Below are positions 3,970-53,146 of a stretch of 64,000 nt of DNA, piece by piece. This stretch comes from an uncultured Bdellovibrionales bacterium (lineage in GTDB: Bacteria > Bdellovibrionota_C > UBA2361 > SZUA-149 > CAZDIO01). Position 1 is the stretch's first letter. Every line of letters starts with the position of its first letter. The notes under the pieces are model-generated. The model made no database searches and was not told the DNA's origin. It saw only the letters and a program-made list of their open reading frames with translations. The stretch is taken from NCBI GenBank assembly GCA_964505555.1, contig CAZDIO010000102.1:13355-77354 (forward strand), read 5' to 3'. A program made the translations under genes and the position numbers.

Positions 3970-4807
3970 TAGTTTTGACGGCCTTGTGCCCGATCCCATC
4001 AGCTCGAAGGAGCTGGCAAAAAGGATTCGAATCCACGCATTAGAAATGGCAAACCGAGGCTCTAGCTCGCATATCGCTTCTAGCCTTTCTATTGCGGACA
4101 TTCTTGCCGTTCTTTATGGAGAGGTTTTGCAGGTAGACCCCACCAATCCTCAGTGGCCTGCTCGAGATCGCTTTATCTTGAGCAAAGGTCATGCTGGAGC
4201 AGCTCTTTATGCAACCCTGGCGGAAAGAGGGTTTTTCCCGCCTGAACGTCTCCTCTCACACTATCAGAATGGTTCCGATCTTAGTGGACATGTATCTCAC
4301 AAAGGTATCCCTGGGGTGGAGCTCTCCACGGGATCTCTAGGACATGGGCTTGGGGTCGGTGCCGGAATGGCATACGGAGCAAGACTTGATGCACAGACTC
4401 ATCGAGTCTTTGTGTTGATGAGTGATGGAGAGTGTGACGAAGGTTCAAATTGGGAAGCTATTTTATTTGCTGCACATCATCAACTTGATAACCTGGTGGC
4501 AATCATCGATTATAATAAGATACAAAGCCTTGCTCCTGTTTCAGAAACGTTGGGACTTGAGCCCTTCCGTGCAAAATGGGAGGCCTTTGGTTGGGAAGTA
4601 AAGGAATTAGATGGTCATCACCATCAGGAACTTTTTAGTGCTTTCTCAAAAATTCCTTTTGAAACAGGAAAGCCAAATTGCATTATTGCTCACACAACCA
4701 AGGGAAAAGGAGTTAAGTTCATGGAAGACTCTGTACTTTGGCACTACCGCACTCCTCAGGGAAGTGAATTTGAACGAGCATTAGCAGAGCTTCATTCTAC
4801 CTTATGA
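3962..4807 (+). CDS. Transketolase, N-terminal (ThDP/PP-binding) subunit of a split transketolase
   Basis: 281 aa. Motifs SKGHAGAALYATLAERGF and GSLGHGLGVGAGMAY, with GDGECDEGSNWEA (ThDP-binding GDG...E/N). Overlaps upstream DegT stop (ATGGCTAG). Confidence 0.85.
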   Translation: MASSFDGLVPDPISSKELAKRIRIHALEMANRGSSSHIASSLSIADILAVLYGEVLQVDPTNPQWPARDRFILSKGHAGAALYATLAERGFFPPERLLSHYQNGSDLSGHVSHKGIPGVELSTGSLGHGLGVGAGMAYGARLDAQTHRVFVLMSDGECDEGSNWEAILFAAHHQLDNLVAIIDYNKIQSLAPVSETLGLEPFRAKWEAFGWEVKELDGHHHQELFSAFSKIPFETGKPNCIIAHTTKGKGVKFMEDSVLWHYRTPQGSEFERALAELHSTL

Positions 4808-29307: not shown

Positions 29308-29350
29308 AATAAAGAATCTTTAACTTAATGGCCGTGAGAATCCTCCTAAC

Positions 29351-30395: not shown

Positions 30396-31259
30396 CTACT
30401 GCAGCAACGTCAACGCCAAGGCTGGCTGTTGATTTGCTTGTGCTAATACTGAAGCACTTGCTTGCTGGAGAATATTTAGTCGCGTAAGTTCCGCCGCTTC
30501 GAACGCTACGTCAACGTCACGGATTCGACTTTCTGCAGCGAGGAAGTTTTCTCGAGCCACTTGCAAGTTACTAATCGCCACATTCAGCCGACTCTCGGTA
30601 GAACCCAATGTTCCTCGAGACGCTGTCAAACTTCCGATGGCGAGGTTAATAGCATCAAGAGCTGATCGTGCAGAGATCTGAGATTCATTCGCCGTTGCCG
30701 CCAAGATCGAAAACAACGGTATAGAACTCCCCTCAACTGCCAACCCAATTGATGCCAAGGTAGCAGAAACTGCAGAGTAGGATACCTGTGAGGTAGTCTG
30801 CCCATCAAACCCTACCTGAAACACCGTCTGTGCTCCTCCAGAGAGAAGGTTTACACCGTTAAATTCAGTTGTTAAGGCGATTCGCTCAATTTCGCTTGAG
30901 AGCGCGAGAAACTCTAAATGCAACGCAGAACGTTGGGTGTTACTAAATACACCGTTGGCTGATTGTTCAGCAAGCTCTGCAAGCCTTGTTAATACGTTTC
31001 CGATCTGCTCCATCGCACCGTCAGTAATGGAGATCATCGAAACACCATCGCTTGCGTTTCGTATGGCGACAGTAGCTACTCGAGAATCTGAACGCAGCTG
31101 ATCGGCGATCGCAAGTCCAGCAGCATCGTCTGATGCTTTGGTAATTCGCAAACCGGACGACAACCGCTCATAGGCTTTCTGTAAACGATCCGTTGTTGAA
31201 CTTAAGTTTCTCTGCGCAGTAAGCGAGGAAACGTTAGTCCGTATATTAATTGTACCCAT
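30396..31259 (-). CDS. fliC: Flagellin (short, D0/D1 only)
   Basis: 287 aa. N-terminus NVSSLTAQRNLSSTTDRLQKAYERLSSGLRITKASDDAAGLAIADQL and C-terminus LNILQQASASVLAQANQQPALALTLLQ match the conserved flagellin N- and C-domains. Confidence 0.9.
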   Translation of the reverse strand: MGTINIRTNVSSLTAQRNLSSTTDRLQKAYERLSSGLRITKASDDAAGLAIADQLRSDSRVATVAIRNASDGVSMISITDGAMEQIGNVLTRLAELAEQSANGVFSNTQRSALHLEFLALSSEIERIALTTEFNGVNLLSGGAQTVFQVGFDGQTTSQVSYSAVSATLASIGLAVEGSSIPLFSILAATANESQISARSALDAINLAIGSLTASRGTLGSTESRLNVAISNLQVARENFLAAESRIRDVDVAFEAAELTRLNILQQASASVLAQANQQPALALTLLQ

Positions 31260-33171: not shown

Positions 33172-33408
33172 TTATATCCACTCTTTCATCAGTCGTTTGA
33201 TCTGACTCTGATACGGCACATTTTGTAGATCACATTTATGCCGAAACGCAGCAAGAAGGGTCTGGGGAATTTTTATACTAATGAGTTTACTCTTTTCTGG
33301 CCGTTCATTCATGAGCCGAAAATCTTCAAGAAAACGTGCTATTTCATCCGGAGAGAGCTTCTTTGAATGATGAAGATACTCTTTAGAAAAAAACTGAACA
33401 CTTTTCAT
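33172..33408 (-). CDS. BrnA-like ribbon-helix-helix antitoxin-family protein
   Basis: 78 aa. C-terminus ISIKIPQTLLAAFRHKCDLQNVPYQSQIKRLMKEWI resembles the BrnA/CopG-type RHH antitoxin C-terminus. Confidence 0.55.
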   Translation of the reverse strand: MKSVQFFSKEYLHHSKKLSPDEIARFLEDFRLMNERPEKSKLISIKIPQTLLAAFRHKCDLQNVPYQSQIKRLMKEWI

Positions 33409-33414
33409 CTCTTC

Positions 33415-33882
33415 TTACTCTCTACTTAATTCTTGTAGCGCTTCAATATCGGCGAGATCTTGTGGTCGACCCGCTTCTTGTTTCATTCGAATAAGATCTG
33501 ACAATGAAAGAAGGGAGATACTTGTTTGCTGAACCCGAACACGTTTTGTTCTTTGGGTCGAAAGATCATGGGTAATAATGATGTCAACAAGCTCTGCTGG
33601 AGTACGCGGATTTACAAAACTCCATGCAGTAAGGTTTCGATTCTTAATGTACTCCTTTCGAAATTTAAACACCTCTTTGGCGGTGATCGGAAGCTTTGCT
33701 TGAAGGCCGATACTATTTAGCGCCGCTTCCGCCTTTATAAACTGCTCCTCTTCAAAACGAAGAATAATGTCAATGTCGAGCGTTCCTCGTACCGCCCCAT
33801 GAAGAGATACGGCATATCCACCAACAAGTGCATACTTAACGTGGTTCGTATCTAAGGCCTTAATAACGCTTAAAAGAAACAT
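33415..33882 (-). CDS. Nucleotidyltransferase-fold protein (Pol-beta superfamily), putative TA-system partner
   Basis: 155 aa. GGYAVSLHGAVRGTLDIDIIL (GS/GG...D.D NTase signature). 6-nt gap to the downstream RHH gene. Confidence 0.55.
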   Translation of the reverse strand: MFLLSVIKALDTNHVKYALVGGYAVSLHGAVRGTLDIDIILRFEEEQFIKAEAALNSIGLQAKLPITAKEVFKFRKEYIKNRNLTAWSFVNPRTPAELVDIIITHDLSTQRTKRVRVQQTSISLLSLSDLIRMKQEAGRPQDLADIEALQELSRE

Positions 33883-36657: not shown

Positions 36658-38235
36658 CTAAACGCTACGATTCCTTTCTCGTTTTCTTTTCCAAGTTTCA
36701 AAGTCTACTACCGCAATTTTTTTTGCAAGCTCCTCACGAACACATCCTTCAACCGCTTCATGAAGACTTCTTCGATCAAGAGCGGTTTTTAAGCAGTTCA
36801 TCTTCTTTTCAACCTGATCATAGAGGTTTGAAAGAGACTCAGAAGAGAGTGTTTTTCGATAGCGATCGACTTCGGTAGAGAGGTATTCCTGATACTCTTT
36901 TTTCTCAACTGGATTGGCCTCTCCCCGCCCGCTAGAGATTGGGGCTTTTGGAAAGTCCCGCCCAGTATTTTTAAGGATTTTCTCTTCAAAACTCCGGGGA
37001 ATAATGAATTTATGTGGAGTTTCTACTGCCCGATAGAGAAAACCTACCCGATTTTTTGAGACTTTCGTATCATTTGTTTGCACAAGAAAATCGTAATAGG
37101 AGATGATTTTATCAACTTGTAAAAGTTCTGCGGCGTTTTTTTCACTGAGCAGCCGTTTTGCTTGCGAGAGATGAATGCCTCGCGAAAGCAGAGCTTCAAT
37201 GGCTCCTTGTCGTTGTGATTCTAGATCAGTAGAACTGCGTTGGGAGGAATCTTTTTGAAAAACAGGGGGCGAAGAAAGGATAAAGCTTCCTTGCTGCGTG
37301 TGATTTCTAGGAAGAGGGCTCTCTGTTTGCTGGAGATGTTTTTGAGATACGATCTCTTTTCCGGAATGAAAGCGCACAACGGTCTCTACGCCCCTACCTG
37401 CAAACTCATAACTTGAGAGAAACCCAAGCGCTTTTAACTCCTCGCACGCTGGTTCAATTTGTTGCTTAATCTGGGAGATGTATTGATAACTTCGAGAAAG
37501 TCCTAACTTCTCAAAGGCAAAGGTAACAAGTGGTTTTTCAATACTTGATTTGTAGTAAAAATGCTTATCAAGATACCGGTAGAGCCTTCGACTTACAGCA
37601 CTTCGAAGTGAGAAATAAAGGGTTAAATCAAGCTTTTTTATAAACCCTGATTTAAAAGAATGAAAAAGTGCCTCACTCCAAATAAAATAACTCTTTGAAG
37701 CCTCAGCCCCAGAGAGGGCTTTGTTCCCTCGCCCATCGTTTATTTCGTAGGCATCGATAATTCCGAAATTTCTTGTTTGATAGGCTTTTGAAGCATTATC
37801 AAAAAACGCATTTGCTGCCCGAATTCGAACCCCGCTTAAGCGATCAAGTGATTTTGTAAGGCGGGAGTAGCTTCGCCCTTCTGTGGTCCAGCGTAAGATT
37901 CCTAAAAGCTCATACCGGGTAAAATATACCTTTCGGTTTCGAAACCCTTGATCCATCGTTAACCGCATCAAGCCAAGAAGGACATCATCATCCGTAGCGG
38001 TGGGGAGTCCAAACTTGTCTGCCCCGGTAATAATCCACTGGCGTTCAATCACCTCCCCACTGGGGAGCCGTTGGTTGTCACGAAACTCAAGGGTTTTTAC
38101 CTTTGAGTTTGTGCGTGTCGAGAGAACCGCGAGGGGAAACTCTGCAAGGTTCATCTCATCACGTGAGGTAAGCACTACCTCGGATGAGGAGACTTCACGA
38201 TCTTCGGCTCTTTGTTGGTAGAGGGTTTGCTGCAT
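36658..38235 (-). CDS. Replication-initiator-like (RepA-type) protein
   Basis: 525 aa. N-terminus MNLAEFPLAVLSTR... resembles plasmid replication initiator A family N-termini. Basic C-terminus. Lies next to an AT-rich noncoding region and parAB. Assignment tentative. Confidence 0.4.
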   Translation of the reverse strand: MQQTLYQQRAEDREVSSSEVVLTSRDEMNLAEFPLAVLSTRTNSKVKTLEFRDNQRLPSGEVIERQWIITGADKFGLPTATDDDVLLGLMRLTMDQGFRNRKVYFTRYELLGILRWTTEGRSYSRLTKSLDRLSGVRIRAANAFFDNASKAYQTRNFGIIDAYEINDGRGNKALSGAEASKSYFIWSEALFHSFKSGFIKKLDLTLYFSLRSAVSRRLYRYLDKHFYYKSSIEKPLVTFAFEKLGLSRSYQYISQIKQQIEPACEELKALGFLSSYEFAGRGVETVVRFHSGKEIVSQKHLQQTESPLPRNHTQQGSFILSSPPVFQKDSSQRSSTDLESQRQGAIEALLSRGIHLSQAKRLLSEKNAAELLQVDKIISYYDFLVQTNDTKVSKNRVGFLYRAVETPHKFIIPRSFEEKILKNTGRDFPKAPISSGRGEANPVEKKEYQEYLSTEVDRYRKTLSSESLSNLYDQVEKKMNCLKTALDRRSLHEAVEGCVREELAKKIAVVDFETWKRKRERNRSV

Positions 38236-39130
38236 GAAAAAAAATGAAACAAAAAAATTTTAAATTAACTTCAAGTCGTTTGTTATTTTGGTACAACGTA
38301 CATCATAGTTCTTCAACAAGAAGTTTTTTTATAAGTACGTACGTTAGGAGAGAAATTATTCAATCTTTCTAGTAAGTTAAGCCAGAAAATTTCTTTCGAT
38401 TCCCGAATCTTTTGGGCTCAGATCACGATGGACTTGAAGTCAATTCACTTGAGCACTTATCTCATTTCATGAGATTTTTATTCTCCTGCCTAACTTTCTT
38501 ACTTCGACTCTCGACATTGTGAAACCAAAAGCGCGAGATTTTTATGTAAGGCTCTCTGGAGCCTCTAACATGAGTCAGATAGCCAAACATTCCGGAGAAA
38601 ACGGTAGGTGGTCACGGTCATTAAGTTAGTTCCTGTCCATAAAAGCCAATTTTGAGTCCAAGGTCGATTGAACGGCCACTACTTCTAAACTTACTCTGTG
38701 GTTTTATAAAATCTTCTTTCAGACCCTTAATGACCGTGGGTAAGAAACTCTATTTTAGTAAAGTCTCTTAGTTCATTACTCGAACCCTTATTTCAATACA
38801 CGCCTATTTGACCATTTTTGGTTATTCCATTTCACGAACAGCAGCCAAACAAAAACCACAAGATATTCTAACATATTGAAATTATTAATATAATCAGATA
38901 TTCGTGGTTTAATTGACCTCCAAAGATCGCATTATTCTGGGAATGTTCGAGCTTCGAAATAAGTACTGATCACGTTTATAAGCGAGCTTTTGAAAGATGA
39001 TTATTTCAAAGCACGCTACTTTTTGGCCACTAGGTAGGTTTCTTTACTGTTTGGAAGCTTTAGTTTAAACCAGTTATTGTTTAATTTAACCTCTGCCAAA
39101 ATCTCAACTCTTGAGTAACGAAGCTGTAAG
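38236..39130. other. About 0.9 kb AT-rich noncoding region between the rep-like gene and parA; candidate replication origin / partition site region
   Basis: No ORF over 60 aa. A-tracts present. Contains a 15-bp inverted repeat (gtcacggtcattaag / cttaatgaccgtg about 100 nt apart) and short direct repeats (agatattc ×2). Confidence 0.3.
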
Positions 39131-39913
39131 GTGGCCATGGCAAAAGTCTTTGCAATAGTGAATCAAAAGGGGGGAGTTGGAAAAACTACCACCGCTGCAA
39201 ATTTGGCCGCCGCGCTATCTGAGCGAGGTCAAAAAGTGCTTGTTATTGATCTTGATGCTCAAGCAAATCTCTCTGCTCATTTTGGAAGTTCCGTAGATGA
39301 TCAGAGTGAGCAGCTTACAATGTATGATGTGCTCAGGCACAACGCCCCGATTGAAAAAGCAATAATAAACCTCTCTTCGAACTTAAGTATCGTTCCTGCA
39401 AGCCTCCTACTAAGTGCTGCAGATTTAGAGCTTGGTGGTGTTATCGGTCGTGAGTTACTTCTTAAAAAAGCTCTTCAACCGGTAATTGATGACTATGATT
39501 ACACGATCATTGATTGCCCACCCTCACTGGGGATGCTCTCCCTCAATGGGCTTGTTGCTGCTTCACGAGTTATCGTTCCTGTTCAAAGTGAGTTTTTAGC
39601 CCTTCACGGCGTAAGGCAGCTTCTTGATACGATTGACCAGGTACGAAGTGCCTACAACCCCTTACTTGCTGTGGGTGGAGTTCTTCTCTGTCTTCATGAT
39701 TCAAGAAGGAGACTGGCGCGGAGTGTTGCCGATACGGTGCGCGAATATTTTGGAGATCTTGTTTTTGAAACTGTCATTCGCACAAACGTTGCCCTTGCTG
39801 AAGCACCTGCCCAGGGGGACTCAATTTTTCAATACGACCGCCGCTCAAGCGGTGCTGAAGATTATGCTAGCCTTGCAGAGGAGATACTAAGCCGTGGCAA
39901 AAAAGAAGGTTAA
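39131..39913 (+). CDS. parA: ParA/Soj-family partition ATPase
   Basis: 260 aa. Deviant Walker A NQKGGVGKTTT. Confidence 0.9.
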   Translation: MAMAKVFAIVNQKGGVGKTTTAANLAAALSERGQKVLVIDLDAQANLSAHFGSSVDDQSEQLTMYDVLRHNAPIEKAIINLSSNLSIVPASLLLSAADLELGGVIGRELLLKKALQPVIDDYDYTIIDCPPSLGMLSLNGLVAASRVIVPVQSEFLALHGVRQLLDTIDQVRSAYNPLLAVGGVLLCLHDSRRRLARSVADTVREYFGDLVFETVIRTNVALAEAPAQGDSIFQYDRRSSGAEDYASLAEEILSRGKKEG

Positions 39914-40814
39914 ATTCAGTGTAAACCCACTTCTTGGGGGACCAAGTCTTGCATCACGAGCAAAGATGGGGAGCCCTTATCGGGAGCTTTTAATCGACGA
40001 GATCGATTTTGATCCTGATCAACCGCGACGAGTATTTAATGAAGAGCGACTTCAAGAGCTCGCTGATTCAATTAAAGAACACGGAATCATCTCACCAATA
40101 CTTGTTAAAGTAACAGAAGGGGGAACCTATAAGCTTGTATCTGGAGAGAGAAGACTTCGTGCCTCAAAAATTGCTGGATTAGAATCGATCCCCGCAGTTA
40201 TTGAAGACGATGATAAAAGTAGTGATGTAACCCTTCCTAAGCAGCTTGTAGAAAATCTCCAACGAGAAGATCTCACCGTAATGGAGAGGGCGATCGCTAT
40301 TGGCCAACTACGAGATGCTTACAAATTGAGCATTCGTGAGATCTCCTCAAAGCTTTCCATTTCAAAAGGACTCGTTCAGAGAAGCCTTGAAGTTCTCGAT
40401 CTCCCAGACGATCTTCAAGCAGCGTTAATAAACGGTGCCTCAGAGACGAAGATTCTCGTTTTAGCGAAAGTTTCGAATCGTGAATTGAGAAAAGAATTTA
40501 TCGCTCAACTTGATAATTTCACCCGAGCACAACTTGAAGAAGAGGTAGATCGGGTTACGACACTCTTAAATGGCGACAAAGAAGAGGTGTACCACGGTGG
40601 TACACCTCGTAGTCGAAAAAATGGAAGAAATAAACTTTCCCCTCAAGATGAGCAGTTAATTAATGATTTAAAAAACAAACTAGGAACAAGAGTTTCTTTA
40701 ATGCGCAGTCGTGGCAAAGAGGGGCAGGGGAAGCTGATGATCGAGTTCTATTCAGATAACGATCTAAGCGAGATCTTTCGACGACTTTGTCGAACCGCTA
40801 GCGATTCTCTTTAA
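39894..40814 (+). CDS. parB: ParB/Spo0J-family partition protein (GTG start)
   Basis: 306 aa. ParB box ISPILVK...YKLVSGERRLRAS. 20-nt overlap with parA. Confidence 0.85.
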   Translation: MAKKKVKFSVNPLLGGPSLASRAKMGSPYRELLIDEIDFDPDQPRRVFNEERLQELADSIKEHGIISPILVKVTEGGTYKLVSGERRLRASKIAGLESIPAVIEDDDKSSDVTLPKQLVENLQREDLTVMERAIAIGQLRDAYKLSIREISSKLSISKGLVQRSLEVLDLPDDLQAALINGASETKILVLAKVSNRELRKEFIAQLDNFTRAQLEEEVDRVTTLLNGDKEEVYHGGTPRSRKNGRNKLSPQDEQLINDLKNKLGTRVSLMRSRGKEGQGKLMIEFYSDNDLSEIFRRLCRTASDSL

Positions 40815-46482: not shown

Positions 46483-47196
46483 GTGGTGAAAGGGACAACG
46501 GAAAAATTAACTGAAGAGCAGATTCCCCTCGTAATTGAAAATATTCTTTATGCAAAAAAACTGGCGAGGCAGTTTTATCAACAACGAAGCCACTTCGGTT
46601 TCGATGTTGAGGATTTTGAAGGCGCAGCATTGTTTGGATTATGTGACGCTGCAAGGAGGTTTGAGCCTGATAAGACACTTCATTTTAGAACATTTTCCTA
46701 TTTTCGCATTCGGGGTGCGATGTATGATCTGCTGCGACATGGGGGGGGAATTTCGAAGAAACACTTCAAGTGTTTCATTGAAAATCGAAATCAAACGGGA
46801 GAGGGGACAAAACCTCGAGCAGAGGAAGAAGGGAGCCTCCCCTATTCATTTGCAAGAACTGCTGAGGAGTTATCGAGCATTATTGCCACGATTGAAGAGA
46901 TCGATATCGCTGTGCATGTCAGCACGGACAGCGAGATTCCTGAACTCAGCTACGCACGAGACCTAAATCCTGAAGAGATCAATACCATTCGTGCAACCCG
47001 GTCCTATATTAGAAAACTTATCTCTCAACTTCCCACTGAACAACGAACCGTAATTGAACTTCGCTACTACAATGGCGCTACCTTTGATGAAATTAGCGCA
47101 AATCTCGGTGGGCACTCACGGAGTTGGGTTTCACGAACCCATGTTCGAGCTCTTGATAATTTGCGAGGGATGATTCTTAGCGAAAGGAGAGTGTAA
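46483..47196 (+). CDS. Sigma-70-family sigma factor, FliA/sigma-28-like
   Basis: 237 aa. Region 2 (FEGAALFGLCDAARRFEPDKTLHFRTFSYFRIRGAMYD) and region 4 HTH (VIELRYYNGATFDEISANLGGHSRSWVSRTHVRALDNLR). RBS AAGGAGGA. Stop overlaps the sctJ start (TAATG). Confidence 0.8.
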   Translation: MVKGTTEKLTEEQIPLVIENILYAKKLARQFYQQRSHFGFDVEDFEGAALFGLCDAARRFEPDKTLHFRTFSYFRIRGAMYDLLRHGGGISKKHFKCFIENRNQTGEGTKPRAEEEGSLPYSFARTAEELSSIIATIEEIDIAVHVSTDSEIPELSYARDLNPEEINTIRATRSYIRKLISQLPTEQRTVIELRYYNGATFDEISANLGGHSRSWVSRTHVRALDNLRGMILSERRV

Positions 47197-48131
47197 TGAC
47201 ATCCTCAAAATGGAAAGGAATTTTTCTTGCGCTCGTAGCGTTTTTTCAGGTCAGTTGTAAAGAGACCGTTCTTCATAACTTAGATGAGGTGCGAGCCAAT
47301 CAGGTAAAAGTAACACTAGAGAAACGAGGAATTACTGCGCAAAAGCTTTTTGAAGGGAGCGGATGGAGTATTCGAGTCAAGCGTGCTGACGAAACAGAGG
47401 CACTCTCGATTCTTGAAGAAAGCAGAGTTCTCAAACGGAATCTCCGAACCCCGATAGAACCACCAAAGGGGCTTATTCCAAGCCGAGAGGAACGAGCATC
47501 ATTTTCAGAACGGCAACTGGCGGCAAGTTTAGAAAGTACTCTTGAGCGCTTACCCTATGTGCTAGAAGCTCGAGTTCATCTGAACTTAAATGCCGAAGAG
47601 AACCTTCAAATGGTTTTGCCAAAAGAGGGCCATACGGGAAGTGCTCTGATTGTCACCGATGATCATATGCCTGATCATTTAGCAATTCAAAAATCTCAAG
47701 TACAACAACTCATTGCAGGAGCATCAGGAGTAAACCCACAATCAATCTCGGTAGTAATCGCCAAAGCAAGTGCTGAAAACTACGCAGAGCCACAGATCCA
47801 TAAAGTAGCAAAGCCAGTAGAGACGACGAAAAAAGATACTCCCTCCCATTCTCCATCGTGGATAAAAAAGCTGATAGTGCATGCTCGACAGTATCAAACA
47901 TTTTTAATCTATCTCGCTGGGGTATTAATTGCAGTTCTTGCACTCCGATTGATTTTTCGAAAAAACCCATTTCGAAGTGAGCAAACAATACCGAGTTTTC
48001 AAATGCCTCCTCTGAAGAACTCAAAAAATACCGTCTCCTCTGGTGTTCTGGTCAACGGTACCCAACACGGAAATGGCAGTCAGTTTAAACTGCAACCAAA
48101 CAAACAACATGAAACATTGGAGGTGTACTAA
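47196..48131 (+). CDS. sctJ: Type III secretion inner-membrane ring lipoprotein SctJ (YscJ/PrgK/CdsJ family)
   Basis: 311 aa. Signal plus Cys (FFQVSCKE), then LDEVRANQVKVTLEKRGITAQKL...ETEALSILEESRV (YscJ-like secretin/ring-building motif pair). Single C-terminal TM (FLIYLAGVLIAVLALRLIF). Confidence 0.75.
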   Translation: MTSSKWKGIFLALVAFFQVSCKETVLHNLDEVRANQVKVTLEKRGITAQKLFEGSGWSIRVKRADETEALSILEESRVLKRNLRTPIEPPKGLIPSREERASFSERQLAASLESTLERLPYVLEARVHLNLNAEENLQMVLPKEGHTGSALIVTDDHMPDHLAIQKSQVQQLIAGASGVNPQSISVVIAKASAENYAEPQIHKVAKPVETTKKDTPSHSPSWIKKLIVHARQYQTFLIYLAGVLIAVLALRLIFRKNPFRSEQTIPSFQMPPLKNSKNTVSSGVLVNGTQHGNGSQFKLQPNKQHETLEVY

Positions 48132-48132
48132 G

Positions 48133-48408
48133 ATGATGGCTTCTTCTTTAAATATCCATTGCTCACGGCGATGTGAATTGCTTCTCTGCTTAAGTTATCT
48201 CCTTACCCCAGAAGCAGTTACTTCCATCGCCTCAAAATTAGCAACCAATCGCGATCAAGCCGCGAGAAACCTTGCTCAGGCGATGATGTCACTCTCTCCT
48301 CAGTATGTACGAGACCTGAGTTTAAAAACACTTGCCAATGCCGGAATGAGTATCGGTAATTATAAAAACCAAACGCATGCTCACGGGGTAGCCTCGAGGA
48401 AGTTGTAA
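48133..48408 (+). CDS. Small T3SS-locus protein (hypothetical)
   Basis: 91 aa from ATG immediately after the sctJ stop. The longer ORF from 48043 overlaps sctJ. No motif. Confidence 0.3.
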   Translation: MMASSLNIHCSRRCELLLCLSYLLTPEAVTSIASKLATNRDQAARNLAQAMMSLSPQYVRDLSLKTLANAGMSIGNYKNQTHAHGVASRKL

Positions 48409-48409
48409 A

Positions 48410-49333
48410 ATGAAAGAGAACGACAACAATACGTTTGTTGCTGTAATCAGAGCAAAACTTCAAGCAGGGGGGCGCACTCTCGCATCAACGGAAAATGCAC
48501 CACTGCATACACTACGATTTCGGATGATGGCAAATCAATTTCTCTCTATTCTTTCTTCGTTACTTTCTTTACATCTTACAAAGGAAGTTCATATCTCACT
48601 TGATGAGTCATCAACCTTTCCTCGATCACCTGAAGAGGGGTGCGATGGAGAACAGGTGATCGTGAATCTTCGAGTGTATCATCAAAATATACAACTTGTT
48701 TTACCCGGAGAGCTTGTTCATGACCTTGGTGCTTACGTCCTTCATAAGATGCCAACAGCGGTAATCTCTTCTCTCACGAACGAAGAGATTACCGCTGTGA
48801 GTTTCTTAATCGCTTCAGTCCTTGCTGATCGAGCGCTCTCGAAACAACGAATCTACCTCTCTTCAGTGCACAAAAAATGTAACGAAGAAAAACAAGAGAC
48901 CTCAAAACGCGATCGAGAACAAAATCAGCAACTCTGTGTATCAGCCACGGTTGATAAGAGTCACTACCGAGTGCTCGTACGTATCCCCGAGGAGCTTGTT
49001 GGGCGTTTAGAAAGTTATGGGAAATTAATCTTTCATAGGGAACAAACAACACGTCTTCTTTCAAGGGTGTTTGCGCAGTGGTCGCTGCAACTTCGACTCA
49101 ACGTAGGATCGCTTCACGGTCTTACTGCGCTAAAAGAAGGTCAACGTTTTCCACTTACAGAGTCTACGGGGGCACTTTTTTCTCCAAGCCCTCTCTGTGG
49201 TGAAGAAGGGGTAGCGGTTGAAATACTTTCTGCAAGTATTCCTGGACTTTTAAAATTACGAATTAGGGGAGAAAAAGATTTATATCAACGCACTCAATGG
49301 AGGAATAATGACCAGAGAAGATGCCCACAGTAA
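48410..49333 (+). CDS. sctQ: SctQ-like protein, N-terminal part of a split cytoplasmic-ring/sorting-platform protein (contains a SpoA-like C-terminal segment)
   Basis: 307 aa. C-terminal LQLRLNVGSLHGLTALKEGQRFPL...VAVEILSASIPGLLKLRI fits the SpoA/FliN-fold pattern. Overlaps the next SpoA gene by 26 nt. Confidence 0.45.
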   Translation: MKENDNNTFVAVIRAKLQAGGRTLASTENAPLHTLRFRMMANQFLSILSSLLSLHLTKEVHISLDESSTFPRSPEEGCDGEQVIVNLRVYHQNIQLVLPGELVHDLGAYVLHKMPTAVISSLTNEEITAVSFLIASVLADRALSKQRIYLSSVHKKCNEEKQETSKRDREQNQQLCVSATVDKSHYRVLVRIPEELVGRLESYGKLIFHREQTTRLLSRVFAQWSLQLRLNVGSLHGLTALKEGQRFPLTESTGALFSPSPLCGEEGVAVEILSASIPGLLKLRIRGEKDLYQRTQWRNNDQRRCPQ

Positions 49334-49673
49334 TGAATTGTTTAGAGAATTTACAAATCACCATACCCAGACGATGAACCAAAATGGGGAATCGGCTCGT
49401 GAAATAAAGCGAGAAAGCGGCTCATTGCTTACATTGCAGCAAGCAAAATTTCTTTCAGAGATACAGGTTGGGCTTGATGTCGAGATCGGAAAACTCTCCA
49501 TCCCAGCAGATAAACTCATTGATCTCCTTCCTGGGCAAACATTTGAGTTTGAGTTTGATCCGCTTCTAGAGGTTTCGCTCTCACTGGGAGGAGAAAAGAT
49601 AGCAAAAGCTAAATTCATGCTTGATGGAGAGACGCTCTATCTTGAAGTGAGCTCAGTAAAAACCACTTTATGA
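49308..49673 (+). CDS. SpoA/FliN/SctQ-C domain protein (separate C-terminal SctQ gene)
   Basis: 121 aa. VGLDVEIGKLSIPADKLIDLLPGQTFEFEFDPLLEVSLSLGGEKIAKAKFMLDGETLYLEV is the classic SpoA domain. Confidence 0.7.
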   Translation: MTREDAHSNELFREFTNHHTQTMNQNGESAREIKRESGSLLTLQQAKFLSEIQVGLDVEIGKLSIPADKLIDLLPGQTFEFEFDPLLEVSLSLGGEKIAKAKFMLDGETLYLEVSSVKTTL

Positions 49674-49768
49674 CAAAACCGATCGGAAACCATTGATGGA
49701 AATAAACGATAATACGTACGAGACCTAAAAACTGTTGTGAATTAATTGAATTAATAAGGAGAAATAAC

Positions 49769-50071
49769 ATGTCAGATGTAGCCTCGGCGCTTTTTAATAT
49801 CGGAAGTGTTGTGCGTGAAACCGCAAGTTACTTACCAGAACCTGCAACGCAAGGCGTTAGTATGTTTTCTGACGTTATGGATATCGTAAAAAGCCTCACC
49901 GGTAATGGTGTTGGTGGAGTTCCTACCGAGATCGGCGGGGACTTTATGGAACTTCTTGAATTGCAGATTCAAACTCAGCTTGAGCTTCAGACGGTATCAA
50001 TGGTGTCAAACGTTGAGAAGTCTGAACACGAATCAAAGATGGCTGCGATTCGAAACGTTCGCGTAAACTAA
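49769..50071 (+). CDS. Small T3SS-associated protein, needle/inner-rod (SctF/SctI)-like candidate
   Basis: 100 aa, helical. C-terminus ...KMAAIRNVRVN. Position between sctQ and sctV. RBS AAGGAGA. Confidence 0.3.
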   Translation: MSDVASALFNIGSVVRETASYLPEPATQGVSMFSDVMDIVKSLTGNGVGGVPTEIGGDFMELLELQIQTQLELQTVSMVSNVEKSEHESKMAAIRNVRVN

Positions 50072-50099
50072 AACAAGAAAATTAGATTGGAGAAATACT

Positions 50100-50417
50100 A
50101 TGGCCGTATCAAGTGTAACCACCGCTGCACCTCAAACAGCCGAAGGAAAAGCAGCAAAGAGTGAAGGTGAAGATAAAAAGGAGCGCACCTCTCAGGTGAA
50201 CCAATGGGGAAAAGAGATCCTTGATTTAAAAACCTCAAATGCGCGTCTTCTTGAGATCGTTGAAGCAGCAACAAAAGAGGCAAATGATAGCCCCTGGGTG
50301 ATGAACATGATTGAAAAGTTCATCGGTCAACGGGCGGTAAAGGGTGCCGCTGTTTCAAACATGATTCAAGCAATCATGGAAACGATGAAACGAATCGCTA
50401 ATAATATTGGGCGTTAG
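50100..50417 (+). CDS. Small T3SS-associated protein, needle/inner-rod (SctF/SctI)-like candidate
   Basis: 105 aa. C-terminus VSNMIQAIMETMKRIANNIGR resembles needle-family C-termini (…IIQNFR-like). RBS GGAGAAA. Confidence 0.3.
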   Translation: MAVSSVTTAAPQTAEGKAAKSEGEDKKERTSQVNQWGKEILDLKTSNARLLEIVEAATKEANDSPWVMNMIEKFIGQRAVKGAAVSNMIQAIMETMKRIANNIGR

Positions 50418-50428
50418 TTTCTGATTCC

Positions 50429-52507
50429 ATGAGGCAGCACGCCAAAATACGCGATATTTTACTCCCTATCGCTGTTGTTGCGGTAGTAGGGATGATGATT
50501 TTTCCTTTACCATCAGGAGTGCTCGATGCGCTCCTGATGGTAAATATCGCGTTTTCTTTAGTTCTTCTGGTAAGTTCTGTTTATCTTTCTGAACCAAGAC
50601 ACTTTACCTCCCTTCCAGCGATCCTTCTCCTCTCCACTCTTTTTCGCTTAGGATTAAACGTTTCAACAACACGACAGATTCTTGGTCATGCCGAGGCACC
50701 TGAGATTATTGTTGCCTTTGGTTCTTTTGTTGTAACTGGAAGTTTAATTGTCGGTGCGGTGGTATTTTTGATTATCACCGTAGTGCAGTTTCTAGTGATC
50801 ACCAAGGGGGCAGAGAGAGTTGCTGAGGTTGCCGCGAGATTTACCCTCGATGCGATGCCTGGAAAACAGATGGCGATTGATGCTGATGTGCGTTCAGGTT
50901 CCATTAGTGTTGAAGAGGCAAAGGAGCGAAGGCTTGAATTACAACAGGAATCAAAACTCTACGGTGCCCTTGATGGGGCGATGAAGTTTATCAAAGGGGA
51001 CGCAATTGCTGGTTTGATCATCATCGTTATTAATATCACCGCAGGCCTTGCTGTGGGGGTAACACAGATGGGGCTTAGTTTTTCAGAGGCTCTTCATAAG
51101 TACACCCTCTATACGATTGGTGATGGCCTTGTTTCACAACTTCCGGCACTTCTTGTCTCTGTGGCAGCGGGGATTGTAATTACCAGGGTTGAAAATAAAA
51201 GTGGGGCTTTTCTCGGAAGAGATATCTTTGTTCAACTCGGTGCAGAACCTCAAGCCGTGGCCACCAGTGGAGGAGTGCTTCTTCTTCTCTCACTTGTTCC
51301 TGCGTTGCCAGGAATTCCTTTTTTTGTTGTTGGGGTAATTCTTCTTTCTCTTGCAAGAAAGACAAGTCTTCGACAGAAAAGCTCTGAACAGGGAAGGACA
51401 GATTCAGAGTTTCGACCAAAGGTATTTTCTCCACTCGTTTTAGTTCTCTCCCCCGGAGCTGCCGTTCTTCTTCAACGGCTCGGCACCCTTCCCAAGGCGA
51501 TTCATCAATTACGAAGCGAGATGTTTCAAAAATGGGGGGTGATTGTTCCCGATGTCCAATTTGATCTAGAAAAAGGGGAGAGTGAGATCGCTCTCTGGGT
51601 TACTCTTCATGGAGTGCAAGTTGATTCGCTTCGTGGAGATGAAAAAGATTCTGGAGTTTTTGTTGAGAAAACTATTCAATGCTTACAACAGTCCATTGAA
51701 GCTCATCTTTCTGAACTCATCGATGATACGCAAACAAGAATGCTTCTTGAGGTTCATCAAAGCGTTGCCGAGGATCTGATCAATAGTGTCATTCCTGAGA
51801 TGTTGAGTATTACGGCGCTCACGACAATTCTTCGGCAGTTAGTTATTGAGGGGATCCATATTCGTCAGATGCGTTCGATCCTCCAAGCCGTAGCAGAATC
51901 TCATCTTCGCGAGCAGGAGATGAGCCTTTCACTCCCGAGTGCTTCCGGTGCAAATTCACAACGTCTGCAACTTTTAGGGAAGAAAGAAGGAGCGACAAGG
52001 CAAGGACGAGAGCTCCTTGCTGATGTGAGAATCTCTTTAAAGCGAGTTATTTCAAAACAGATCACGGATGATAATTGGAATTTACAAGCCTTCATCTGTG
52101 CGCCTCTTTTGGAACAGATATTTTCCTCTCCCGTTGCCCTTGGAGCGCCCATTGAACCGGGAATACGTGAAAGCATTTTGAATCAGATTAATAAAGCATT
52201 CTCTACACAAAATACCCCCACAAAAGTTCTCTTAACTTCTAAACAGTCACGAACAAATCTCTTCAACCTGATTCGTTTTGACTGTCCAATGGTCTCAGTT
52301 ATCGCAATTGATGAGCTGGCTCCTGAAGTGACGCTCAGTATTCTTGGGGAGATAAAATTAGAAACTGGAGAGACAGCAGACAGTGAGGAGCAGGAAGGGG
52401 GCAAGAGTAAGAAGATTCAGGAAGAGACTCAAGCTAAACCGGAGCGGAGAGTTTTTCGAAATGTTTCTGAAGTGAGAACAAAAGATTCTCAGAAGATCGC
52501 AGCATAA
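50429..52507 (+). CDS. sctV: Type III secretion export-gate protein SctV (LcrD/InvA/CdsV family; injectisome-type rather than FlhA)
   Basis: 692 aa. FLVITKGAERVAEVAARFTLDAMPGKQMAIDAD, AMKFIKGDAIAGLIIIVIN and TIGDGLVSQLPALL match the LcrD/YscV variants (SLDAMPGKQM, FVKGDAIAGLIII, GDGMVSQVPALL) more closely than the FlhA variants (VLDGMPGKQM, FVRGDAIAGILIM). Confidence 0.85.
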   Translation: MRQHAKIRDILLPIAVVAVVGMMIFPLPSGVLDALLMVNIAFSLVLLVSSVYLSEPRHFTSLPAILLLSTLFRLGLNVSTTRQILGHAEAPEIIVAFGSFVVTGSLIVGAVVFLIITVVQFLVITKGAERVAEVAARFTLDAMPGKQMAIDADVRSGSISVEEAKERRLELQQESKLYGALDGAMKFIKGDAIAGLIIIVINITAGLAVGVTQMGLSFSEALHKYTLYTIGDGLVSQLPALLVSVAAGIVITRVENKSGAFLGRDIFVQLGAEPQAVATSGGVLLLLSLVPALPGIPFFVVGVILLSLARKTSLRQKSSEQGRTDSEFRPKVFSPLVLVLSPGAAVLLQRLGTLPKAIHQLRSEMFQKWGVIVPDVQFDLEKGESEIALWVTLHGVQVDSLRGDEKDSGVFVEKTIQCLQQSIEAHLSELIDDTQTRMLLEVHQSVAEDLINSVIPEMLSITALTTILRQLVIEGIHIRQMRSILQAVAESHLREQEMSLSLPSASGANSQRLQLLGKKEGATRQGRELLADVRISLKRVISKQITDDNWNLQAFICAPLLEQIFSSPVALGAPIEPGIRESILNQINKAFSTQNTPTKVLLTSKQSRTNLFNLIRFDCPMVSVIAIDELAPEVTLSILGEIKLETGETADSEEQEGGKSKKIQEETQAKPERRVFRNVSEVRTKDSQKIAA

Positions 52508-52528
52508 TCTTAGCGCGCTGTATGGGAG

Positions 52529-53146
52529 GTGAAAATGAATATATCTTATAGAAAAATCTCTCTTCATCATTTAGCACTCTGGAGTTTTGTCTGTTTCATT
52601 CTTTTCTTGAGTACTGGCTGTATTTACCGAAATAAAAATAGCCTTACGGCTCATGAAGCCGTAACTCGGGAAACAAAGATGAAGTCACTCCTTGCTTTTA
52701 GTGTTTCACAGCTTCGAATCGGAGATGAAGTGGCACTTGATCGCGCCTATGCAACGCTTGAGCTTGCACGAGAGTTAGACCCAAACGATGCACGAGTGTT
52801 TGATGGTTTAGGAAGTGTGGAATGGCGTCGCGAAGGGTATAAGTTAGCGGAGTTCTACTTTAAAAAAGCGGTATCTCTTGATCCTAACTATTCTCGTCCG
52901 TATGCACATCTTTCGCTTGTTGCAGAAAGAAATGGTGATTATCAGGCAGCAAAAGAGCTCCTTCTAAAATCTCTTGAACTTAATCCTCTTAATTACCGGG
53001 CAAGAAACAACTACGCCGCCCTTCTTGTTCGTTACGGAAATCAAACAAGTAATGAACAAACGGCGTACTATGAGTTTCTAAAAGTTGCCCGAGGTGCTTC
53101 AAAAGAAGATCCCGTTCTTCAGTATAATCTAGGTCGGTTTGAGTAG
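52529..53146 (+). CDS. TPR-repeat lipoprotein
   Basis: 205 aa. Signal plus LSTGC lipobox. At least three TPR units (AYATLELARELDPNDARVF..., AEFYFKKAVSLDPNYSRPY..., AKELLLKSLELNPLNYRAR...). Confidence 0.6.
   Translation: MKMNISYRKISLHHLALWSFVCFILFLSTGCIYRNKNSLTAHEAVTRETKMKSLLAFSVSQLRIGDEVALDRAYATLELARELDPNDARVFDGLGSVEWRREGYKLAEFYFKKAVSLDPNYSRPYAHLSLVAERNGDYQAAKELLLKSLELNPLNYRARNNYAALLVRYGNQTSNEQTAYYEFLKVARGASKEDPVLQYNLGRFE

Follow-up and report, generated by a model that had tools for sequence, protein, structure and literature searches.

An RPA-family initiator, phased iterons and parAB mark the replication origin of a chromosome-sized replicon in uncultured Bdellovibrionota

We analysed a 64-kb stretch (the window) of contig CAZDIO010000102.1 from an uncultured Bdellovibrionales bacterium. 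Positions 36658-40814 of the window hold a divergent module in which rep and parA-parB are separated by an 895-bp gap. The rep gene (36658-38235, minus strand) encodes a 525-aa replication initiator of the RPA family (Pfam PF10134). On the other side, parA (39131-39913, plus strand) encodes a 260-aa Soj-type Walker ATPase matched by Pfam AAA_31, CbiA and ParA, and parB (39894-40814, plus strand) encodes a Spo0J-type protein with ParB_N, HTH_ParB and ParB_C domains. An earlier note on this DNA had described an ORF-free, AT-rich gap running directly into parA-parB, on a replicon that also carries housekeeping genes, and each of these features was recovered. The gap (38236-39130) contains no ORF of at least 60 aa and is 64.7% A+T, compared to 56.7% for the window. 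Pfam matches identified icd, hemD, hemB, pgl, a serA-like dehydrogenase and a polyprenyl synthase gene, together with flagellar genes. Toxin-antitoxin genes were present near the module, at 33172-33882 in the window and several times in a related locus, L083. Neither Rfam nor tRNA scans gave a match in the window.

The note had called the rep product a RepA-type initiator. Its assignment to a replication family stands, since Rep matched RPA (PF10134, replication initiator protein A) over residues 25-226 with 67.5 bits against a cut-off of 27, but RepA_N (PF06970) had no Pfam match to Rep at E values up to 0.01. TrfA (PF07042), the initiator of RK2, scored 16.9 bits, below its cut-off of 22, indicating a distant relationship only. 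A PDB sequence search with Rep gave no match, so a fold search was needed, for which we used an AlphaFold2 model (pLDDT 79). In the model, a disordered N-terminus with an invariant SRDEMNLAEFPL motif precedes a dual winged-helix core at approximately residues 45-292, a linker, and two C-terminal helical domains at approximately 333-423 and 442-524. Foldseek matched the model to RctB domains 2-3 (E 1.6e-5), and fold comparison placed its dual winged-helix arrangement with RctB, the pi-iteron complex and RepE. As modelled, Rep therefore has the fold of iteron-binding initiators, the class of RctB, pi, RepE and RepA with two tandem winged-helix domains.

Full-length homologues of Rep at 45-60% identity number more than 1000, and PF10134 was present in 120 of 120 homologues among the matches listed. 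A Rep relative is encoded in 203 species-level genomes, all of them uncultured Bdellovibrionota metagenome-assembled genomes; the best 80 of these 203 matches came from 80 different assemblies, one per assembly. Across 91 sequences, 83 Rep residues are invariant. Outside the clade, RPA initiators are known from plasmids, megaplasmids and secondary chromosomes only.

A weight matrix from which this window was left out, applied with a threshold of 11 bits, detected a bipartite 20-nt repeat ten times in the gap, compared to a mean of 0.08 (maximum 2) in shuffled gaps; elsewhere in the window, no 895-bp stretch contained more than one site. The earlier note had reported repeats here and raised iterons or parS as candidates; the iterons are present, and no canonical parS was found. 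An AT-rich stretch (38236-38389, 70-82% A+T in the A+T profile) extends from the rep start codon to the first iteron and is a candidate DNA-unwinding element that would also contain the rep promoter and leader. A sigma-70-like match at 38286-38257 (minus strand) within it is weak and no better than chance. The stretch is followed by iteron array 1 (38390-38517, plus strand), with five repeats starting at 38390, 38412, 38434 and 38456, at exact 22-bp spacing, and at 38498. A second cluster (38767-38840, plus strand; repeats at 38767, 38787 and 38821) precedes another AT-rich patch (38850-38925, approximately 80-85% A+T), which is flanked by iterons and is a candidate alternative unwinding site. 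Approximately 110-190 bp upstream of parA lies an iteron pair (38944-39019), inverted at 38944-38963 (minus strand) and direct at 39000-39019 (plus strand), which may serve as a control site or as the parAB operator. The gap also contains a perfect inverted repeat of 13 nt, which was set aside; it is specific to this genome and gave no RNA-fold signal (z = -0.8).

In related loci, read for approximately 10 kb on each side of rep, the order rep, iterons, parAB was found at all 74 loci with upstream sequence. All 74 gaps contained the 20-nt motif (clade consensus yTTAyyTCRAwnCACGAta, which includes no GATC), with a median of 9-10 copies per gap and a density approximately 30 times that outside the gaps, where it equalled chance. 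Intervals between sites were dominated by 22 bp (178, with a further 50 at 23 bp), and 81% of sites shared one orientation. In 56 of the 74 gaps, the most AT-rich 60-mer (mean 78% A+T) lay between rep and the iteron array. Directly repeated, helically phased iterons beside rep and an AT-rich region are thus present, as in the iteron-binding initiator class. The related gaps yielded no further conserved motif; a 22-nt single-copy element, AAGATTGTTTAACTAACTAAAA, considered as a core part of the origin, was rejected, as it is conserved only in a distant subclade and is missing from the window. We propose that Rep monomers would read the two halves of each iteron (TTAyyTC and CACGA) with their two winged-helix domains and load side by side on the 22-bp-phased arrays. 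Since 22 bp corresponds to two helical turns, all monomers would sit on one face of the DNA. Rep could then melt the adjoining AT-rich stretch and recruit the host helicase, with DnaA boxes uninvolved.

The cumulative GC skew of the 64-kb window reached its minimum at 36-39 kb, at the gap, as the earlier note had anticipated. With parAB and rep excluded from the comparison, skew changed sign at the gap, negative before it and positive after it, in all 46 related loci with adequate flanks. Independent of gene strand, skew at third codon positions was -0.08/-0.09 to one side of the gap and +0.07/+0.06 beyond it, and 63% of genes in the related loci point away from the gap. The skew sign change expected of an origin, independent of transcription direction, is therefore found here. 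The largest contigs bearing the module were 1.87 Mb and 709 kb in length; the former carries the label of second contig in its bin, which leaves room for a still larger replicon. Divergences of Rep, ParA and ParB co-vary (Mantel r 0.75), and the module is clade-wide and vertically inherited, rather than a peculiarity of one contig as it had first appeared. Taken together, the skew switch, the conserved layout of rep, iterons and parAB, and the 1.87-Mb contig indicate that the gap works as the origin of a chromosome-sized replicon and has been inherited vertically. The plasmid-type Rep and the nearby toxin-antitoxin genes, in the window and in L083, would also fit the remnant of an integrated plasmid or mobile element, with rep and iterons that have ceased to fire and the true origin elsewhere on the same chromosome. 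Against such a remnant, the skew switch falls exactly at the gap in every genome compared, position and synteny are the same at every locus, Rep is strongly conserved, and iteron arrays are kept in every genome, leaving that explanation close to refuted.

The apparent lack of dnaA and DnaA boxes, also remarked on earlier, was confirmed: there were no DnaA boxes in the gap, matches in the window were at chance level, and no dnaA was detected in the 64 kb. DnaA boxes were not enriched in the 74 related gaps (0.28 vs 0.21 per kb), nor was dnaA found within approximately 10 kb of the related origins (1.3 Mb of origin-proximal sequence, searched with an approximate E. coli DnaA query sequence). The DnaA-box cluster that marks a DnaA-dependent oriC at the skew minimum, beside dnaA or dnaN, is not found at this gap. 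To our knowledge, DnaA/oriC is near-universal for bacterial main chromosomes, with reduced endosymbionts and some cyanobacteria as exceptions, and very few free-living bacteria lack DnaA. A literature search for PF10134 on chromosomes or for DnaA-less Bdellovibrionota retrieved nothing relevant, and preprints on DciA and on plasmid phylogeny were silent on the matter.

ParA matched the ParA of PDB 8RAY with 205 bits and Thermus Soj with 177 bits, and shares 48% identity with Bacillus Soj but only 32% with the ParA of D. radiodurans chromosome II. The pair has the composition of chromosomal ParABS systems, a Soj-type ParA with a ParB carrying ParB_N, HTH and C-terminal dimerisation domains. The DNA-recognition helix of ParB departs from the canonical form: SISKGLVQRSLEVL in the window and LGISKSAVQRSLEILSLPDDL as the clade consensus across 60 genomes, in which most positions are conserved in at least 80% and the VQRSL core in at least 90%. 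Across the clade the helix reads SKxxVQRSLExL, compared to the canonical SRxxVANxxRLL. The canonical parS, TGTTTCACGTGAAACA, was not found in the window with up to 3 mismatches, nor in 1.3 Mb from the 74 related loci with up to 1 mismatch, and there were no other recurrent palindromes near parAB in the related loci. The atypical ParB and absent canonical parS are more plasmid-like than chromosome-like.

Iteron-like sites also occur outside the gap. The best-scoring site of the window (21.7 bits; 40475-40494, minus strand) is isolated inside the parB coding sequence, at approximately residue 201, and its position is kept in L002, L003 and L008. One or more sites scoring at least 16 bits lie between the 3' half of parB and approximately 1.3 kb past its stop codon in 51 of 62 related loci, compared to none in the rep body (0/72) and one downstream of rep (1/65). 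A strong-looking site at -598 inside parA occurs in many relatives and may be a coding coincidence, because it encodes the conserved ParA peptide LICLHDS. The bracketing of parAB rather than rep by strong sites raises the alternative that the 20-nt repeats are mainly a re-specified, parS-like centromere for the atypical ParB, with Rep binding partly or elsewhere and origin and centromere overlapping. The missing canonical parS, the changed yet conserved recognition helix and the lack of another conserved motif in the gaps would all agree with this alternative, and the equivalent iterons of D. radiodurans are reported to bind their cognate ParB (bioRxiv 10.1101/2020.03.28.013953). However, the motif is non-palindromic, bipartite and in tandem 22-bp phase, as Rep iterons are, the modelled Rep has the iteron-binding fold of pi and RepE, and similar phased iterons accompany RPA genes on plasmids without adjacent parAB. 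Spo0J-type ParB dimers, moreover, normally read palindromes. We therefore consider a mainly centromeric role unlikely. Under the preferred reading of the repeats as Rep iterons, the Soj/Spo0J-type ParAB, with its re-specified DNA-reading helix, would segregate the new origin, and the extra sites in or just past parAB may serve copy-number control, through Rep pairing or titration, or act as a centromere.

The earlier note had proposed a chromid origin or an unusual chromosomal one, and the RPA match, initiator fold, phased iterons and GC skew support that proposal. We assign a probability of roughly 0.55 to the reading that the gap is a working bidirectional origin of a chromosome-sized, vertically inherited replicon that is most likely the main chromosome. 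The same Rep-iteron-parAB origin could also lie on an ancient chromid beside a DnaA-dependent main chromosome, as in Vibrio chromosome 2 and D. radiodurans chromosome II. The Rep family is of plasmid or chromid type, canonical parS is absent, ParB is divergent, and the replicon combines a plasmid-type replication system with core genes: across the window and related loci, origin-linked genes include icd, hemB, hemD, ispA, folC, argS and flagellar genes. The origin of Vibrio chromosome 2 lies between the initiator gene and parAB in the same divergent layout, with regulatory sites toward parAB, and is likewise conserved taxon-wide. However, at 1.87 Mb or more the replicon is large for a phylum with genomes of usually 2-4 Mb, ParA is Soj-like and far from that of Deinococcus chromosome II, and flagellar, TCA-cycle, haem, folate and argS genes lie beside the origin. 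We also know of no multipartite genome in the Bdellovibrionota. tRNAs, found near the origin at only 2 loci (44 flanks scanned), did not discriminate between chromosome and chromid. On this balance we lean towards the main chromosome and regard the ancient chromid as a real possibility but the less probable of the two.

The closest parallel in layout is D. radiodurans chromosome II and megaplasmid, where the cisII/cisMP iterons lie between parAB and a gene for an initiator of the same Pfam family, and chromosome II shows the same divergent parB-parA, iteron array, rep order that favours a chromid. Both origin and centromere functions are reported for that iteron region (bioRxiv 10.1101/2020.03.28.013953). 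The iterons there have 22/33-bp spacing and are reported to bind DnaA, in contrast to the clade gaps with their lack of DnaA-box signal. Rep identity between the two is only 23% and ParA identity 32%, the phyla differ, and the 412-kb D. radiodurans chromosome II is clearly secondary to a DnaA chromosome, whereas the clade replicon reaches at least 1.87 Mb. Vibrio cholerae chromosome 2 (RctB, ori2 iterons, parAB2) is likewise a large replicon with essential genes driven by a non-DnaA initiator. However, RctB shares 11% identity with the clade Rep, with no sequence-level membership of the family, and has extra domains; its iterons are 11/12-mers with a Dam methylation site, unlike the GATC-free clade consensus, and Vibrio ParAB2 is of plasmid type Ia.

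If the main-chromosome reading is correct, an entire uncultured branch of the Bdellovibrionota, bacteria of predatory type, replicates a megabase chromosome with a plasmid-style initiator and its repeated binding sites and with no visible DnaA-type origin, a rare exception among bacteria. The sequence defines a replacement candidate for DnaA/oriC that comprises an initiator, iterons, a putative unwinding region and partition genes; it is conserved across hundreds of species, making the question of how chromosomes swap initiators directly testable. If the replicon is instead a chromid, it would represent the first multipartite genome architecture in the Bdellovibrionota, by far the largest known replicon dependent on an RPA-family initiator, and one whose Spo0J-type ParB has abandoned canonical parS. 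Tentatively, and at a little under even odds, we suggest a free-living clade, spanning 203 or more species-level genomes, in which an RPA-iteron origin of plasmid descent, next to the ancestral parAB, drives replication of the main or sole chromosome. This would amount to a fixed 'integrative suppression', in which DnaA/oriC was lost or demoted and ParB was re-specified to a new centromere sequence.

Iteron plasmids such as R6K (pi), F (RepE), pPS10 (RepA) and RK2 (TrfA) share direct iterons of approximately 20 bp, 22-bp spacing and an AT-rich neighbour with the clade origin. These are small plasmids, most of which depend on host DnaA boxes within their origins, whereas the clade system has two extra C-terminal helical domains in Rep, no DnaA boxes and a megabase-sized replicon. 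The closest relatives of Rep outside the clade (31-34% identity, residues 22-417) are encoded by Planctomycetes RPA plasmids of 34-81 kb (pEP7_04, pISOP01, pPL62-3 and pSINAC01), where 22-nt iterons with a related CGATA/CACG core lie upstream of rep and parAB is usually non-adjacent (three of the four). All four plasmids and D. radiodurans chromosome II carry 22-bp-phased iterons directly upstream of the RPA gene, and several RPA replicons share the CGATA/CACG sub-motif.

The rep gene (36658-38235, minus strand) encodes a 525-aa protein, Rep, that matched the Pfam family RPA (PF10134, 'replication initiator protein A') at 67.5 bits against a cut-off of 27; a match to TrfA fell below threshold. 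The earlier note had recognized a RepA-type N-terminus and considered both RepA_N and RPA as the family, of which RPA was supported whereas RepA_N produced no match. More than 1000 database proteins matched Rep. The best 120 shared 44-71% identity with it, and for most the match covered >90% of Rep; PF10134 was present in every one. In an alignment of 91 of these best 120 homologues, 83 residues were invariant, among them the SRDEMNLAEFPL motif and residues in a conserved core and in two conserved blocks of the C-terminal part. In an AlphaFold2 model (mean pLDDT 79), two winged-helix units (residues ~45-292) are followed by a disordered linker and two helical domains. A PDB sequence search with Rep returned no match, and a Foldseek search with the model returned domains 2-3 of RctB as the only significant matches (E 1.6e-5). 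Rep is an RPA-family initiator by HMM, with a pi/RepE/RctB fold. Outside the clade of this Bdellovibrionales bacterium, Rep is closest to RPA proteins encoded by Planctomycetes plasmids (31-34% identity); megaplasmids of Deinococcus, Thermus, and Rubrobacter encode more distant kin, as does D. radiodurans chromosome II.

The start codon of rep faces an 895-bp gap (38236-39130) that contains no ORF of at least 60 aa and is 64.7% A+T, versus 56.7% for the window. As the earlier note described, the gap runs directly into parA (39131-39913) and parB (39894-40814), both on the plus strand and transcribed away from it. Using k-mer enrichment over 74 rep-parA gaps followed by weight-matrix refinement, we derived a 20-nt, bipartite, non-palindromic iteron motif, yTTAyyTCRAwnCACGAta. 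Every one of the 74 gaps has the motif (median 9-10 copies, minimum 2-3, maximum 15), at ~30 times the density of the flanks, where density equalled chance expectation. One orientation was common to 81% of sites, and start-to-start spacing was predominantly 22 bp (178 intervals), then 23 bp (50), then 44-45 bp. With a weight matrix made without the window sequence, the window gap contained 10 sites of at least 11 bits, compared to an average of 0.08 in shuffled gaps and at most 1 in other 895-bp stretches. Iterons start at 38390, 38412, 38434, and 38456 in exact 22-bp phase, joined by one at 38498; a second cluster starts at 38767, 38787, and 38821, and further copies at 38944 (inverted) and 39000. 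The rep-side end of the gap (38236-38389) is 70-82% A+T, and the most AT-rich 60-mer lay on the rep side of the iteron array in 56/74 gaps. Phased iterons beside an AT-rich block are the classical layout of an iteron origin.

Two smaller elements were observed around rep. Between the two iteron clusters is a perfect 13-nt inverted repeat, CACGGTCATTAAG / CTTAATGACCGTG (38613-38625 and 38726-38738, 100 nt apart), specific to the window's genome; a further copy, differing at one position, is at 29324-29336. RNA folding gave nothing unusual (z = -0.8), and the repeat may represent a small insertion or paired sites for a regulator. Over 20 genomes of a distant subclade (comparison loci L021-L082; for example, ~9718-9739 of L058) share an identical, single-copy 22-nt element, AAGATTGTTTAACTAACTAAAA, that the window lacks. 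Situated 100-300 nt upstream of the conserved rep core, this element is a candidate promoter or operator for rep.

Cumulative GC skew in the 64-kb window fell steadily to 36-39 kb and then rose, with its minimum near the gap, where the earlier note had placed a candidate origin. Among 46 related loci in which both flanks of the gap reached 5 kb or more, skew turned from negative to positive across it in 46/46, even with parAB and rep removed. Third-codon-position skew, read on one strand for both gene orientations, was -0.077 and -0.094 on the parAB side and +0.066 and +0.061 on the rep side. Since its sign was the same for either gene orientation, the asymmetry follows replication rather than transcription. 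Flanking genes were directed away from the gap in 63% of cases, and this orientation, together with the skew sign, points to an origin rather than a terminus. Skew, phased iterons, and an RPA initiator thus bear out the earlier proposal and indicate that the gap is very probably a replication origin; it is very improbable that the module (rep, iteron-bearing gap, and parA-parB) is a non-functional relic.

The window contained no dnaA gene, and DnaA-box matches were at chance level in the window and zero in the gap, in agreement with the earlier note, which had seen neither. Nor did an approximate E. coli DnaA query find dnaA beside the other origins, where sequence to either side was covered for at most 10 kb. 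The module failed the tests for a DnaA-oriC, and the gaps of related loci showed no enrichment of DnaA boxes, which suggests that DnaA does not act at the rep-parA origin; dnaA may be located elsewhere in clade genomes. Judged by its sequence, the module would work as an iteron replicon.

ParA resembles main-chromosome Soj, with 48% identity to Bacillus Soj and scores of 205 bits against PDB 8RAY and 177 bits against Thermus Soj, but only 32% identity to the RPA-associated ParA of Deinococcus chromosome II. This Soj-like character, remote from the Deinococcus protein, suggests retention of an ancestral chromosomal parAB, next to which a plasmid-type initiator was placed. ParB shows the domain set of Spo0J-type proteins (ParB_N, HTH_ParB, and ParB_C). 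Its recognition helix reads SKxxVQRSLExL, largely conserved in 60 genomes, versus the canonical SRxxVANxxRLL (window residues ~150-175, SISKGLVQRSLEVL; clade consensus, LGISKSAVQRSLEILSLPDDL; canonical, GKSRxxVANxLRLL). The parS site that the earlier note had envisaged in the gap had no match in the window with up to 3 mismatches, and canonical parS was absent from 1.3 Mb of origin-proximal sequence. No other recurrent motifs or palindromes were found in the gaps or near parAB. The ParB of this clade seems to have changed its DNA specificity.

Isolated sites of at least 16 bits were present between the 3' half of parB and ~1.3 kb past its stop in 51/62 loci, compared to 0/72 rep bodies and 1/65 loci downstream of rep. 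The top iteron-like site of the window (21.7 bits; 40475-40494, minus strand) is inside parB, where it codes NRELRK. Three relatives have it in the same place, and most others have one or more strong sites just past parB instead. Sites bracketing parAB fit either Rep-mediated pairing/titration control, with the P1 incA and Vibrio incII regions as the comparison, or a centromere. The 20-nt repeats as a centromere would accord with this bracketing, with a ParB helix that is altered yet largely conserved, and with the lack of parS or another recurrent motif; moreover, the equivalent iterons of D. radiodurans are reported to have origin and centromere function and to bind ParB (bioRxiv 10.1101/2020.03.28.013953). 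However, arrays of 4-14 iterons with 22-bp (or 22/33-bp) spacing also lie directly upstream of the RPA gene in pEP7_04, pISOP01, pPL62-3, pSINAC01, and D. radiodurans chromosome II, and three of the four Planctomycetes plasmids have no adjacent parAB. Several of these iterons hold CCGATA, TCGATA, or TCAAnnCACGG, resembling the TCAAwnCACGATA of the clade, whose motif has two conserved blocks about one helical turn apart. Because of the RPA-adjacent plasmid iterons, the pi/RepE-like fold, and the bipartite motif, we favor Rep, which is quite probably the main binder of the repeats.

One genome per GTDB species was scanned for Rep relatives, and 203 genomes encoded one. The best 80 of these, retrieved as one locus per assembly, were all uncultured MAGs labelled Bdellovibrionota, Bdellovibrionales, Oligoflexia, or 'Deltaproteobacteria', and the module was single-copy in each. 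It lies at 577-599 kb of the 1.87-Mb contig JAXLVP010000002.1 (assembly GCA_046328905.1), with the rep-parA gap at ~586 kb, and another copy is on a 709-kb contig. Other rep-bearing MAGs include JBMNIF01, DAOLCO01, and JAIBBU01. The rep / gap / parA-parB layout was present in 74/74 loci, with a polyprenyl synthase gene after parB in most and folC between them in 42. Pairwise identities of Rep, ParA, and ParB co-varied (Mantel r 0.75, reached by 0/999 permutations), indicating vertical co-inheritance. Essential genes linked to the module include argS in two loci and folC in those 42; icd and hemB are linked in the window and a few loci.

We estimate a probability of roughly 0.55 that the module is the origin of the main chromosome. 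The 1.87-Mb and 709-kb contigs, single copy per assembly, identical layout, co-varying identities, linked essential genes, and Soj-like ParA are the evidence for this. Location on a chromid (secondary chromosome) is possible but less likely: the Rep family is otherwise found on plasmids or chromids, and Vibrio and Deinococcus show that exactly such a module can persist on a secondary chromosome. That a free-living clade replaced DnaA-oriC is put forward tentatively.

No paper describing the RPA-iteron module of this clade was found. Among described systems, D. radiodurans chromosome II and its megaplasmid come closest, sharing the family and layout of the module; in concept and structure, Vibrio chromosome 2 with RctB does. 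New here are the phylum, the replicon size (at least 1.87 Mb versus 0.4 Mb for the Deinococcus RPA replicon), vertical conservation clade-wide in 203 species-level genomes, a Soj-type ParA with an apparently re-specified ParB, and the real possibility of main-chromosome status. In the D. radiodurans chromosome II locus (L090), 11 iterons upstream of the RPA gene (2511-2824) overlap a 'hypothetical protein' CDS (2536-2991) that is probably a mis-annotation, and three more copies closely follow the gene on its downstream side (4348-4597).

Elsewhere the window has the gene content of an ordinary chromosome, including ubiD, flagellin, a lytic transglycosylase, an OsmC-like gene, and a probable toxin-antitoxin pair; no tRNA gene or Rfam match was found in the window. 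The housekeeping genes listed in the earlier note were all present: icd lies on the rep side of the gap, and the parAB side has hemD, hemB, pgl, and a serA-like gene, together with an ispA-like gene and a putative flagellar export cluster. A ~26-kb cluster of sugar-modification genes (956-27412) encodes three DegT-type aminotransferases, a split transketolase, glycosyltransferases, a Wzy-like polymerase, a flippase-like protein, and a sulfatase. It may be an O-antigen or flagellin-glycosylation island; the flagellin gene (30396-31259) is on that side of the origin too, a few kb away. A two-gene cassette on the minus strand (33172-33882), ~3 kb from rep, encodes a 78-aa CopG-like antitoxin and a 155-aa DUF6036 nucleotidyltransferase, probably a toxin-antitoxin pair, and several such pairs lie beside the origin of another related locus, L083. 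The plus-strand cluster at 46483-53146 encodes a sigma-70-family factor, a TPR protein, and a clear FHIPEP (FlhA-type) export gate, with weak Pfam matches to YscJ/FliF and FliN and interspersed ORFs without a Pfam match; it is possibly a divergent export cluster, flagellar or type III.
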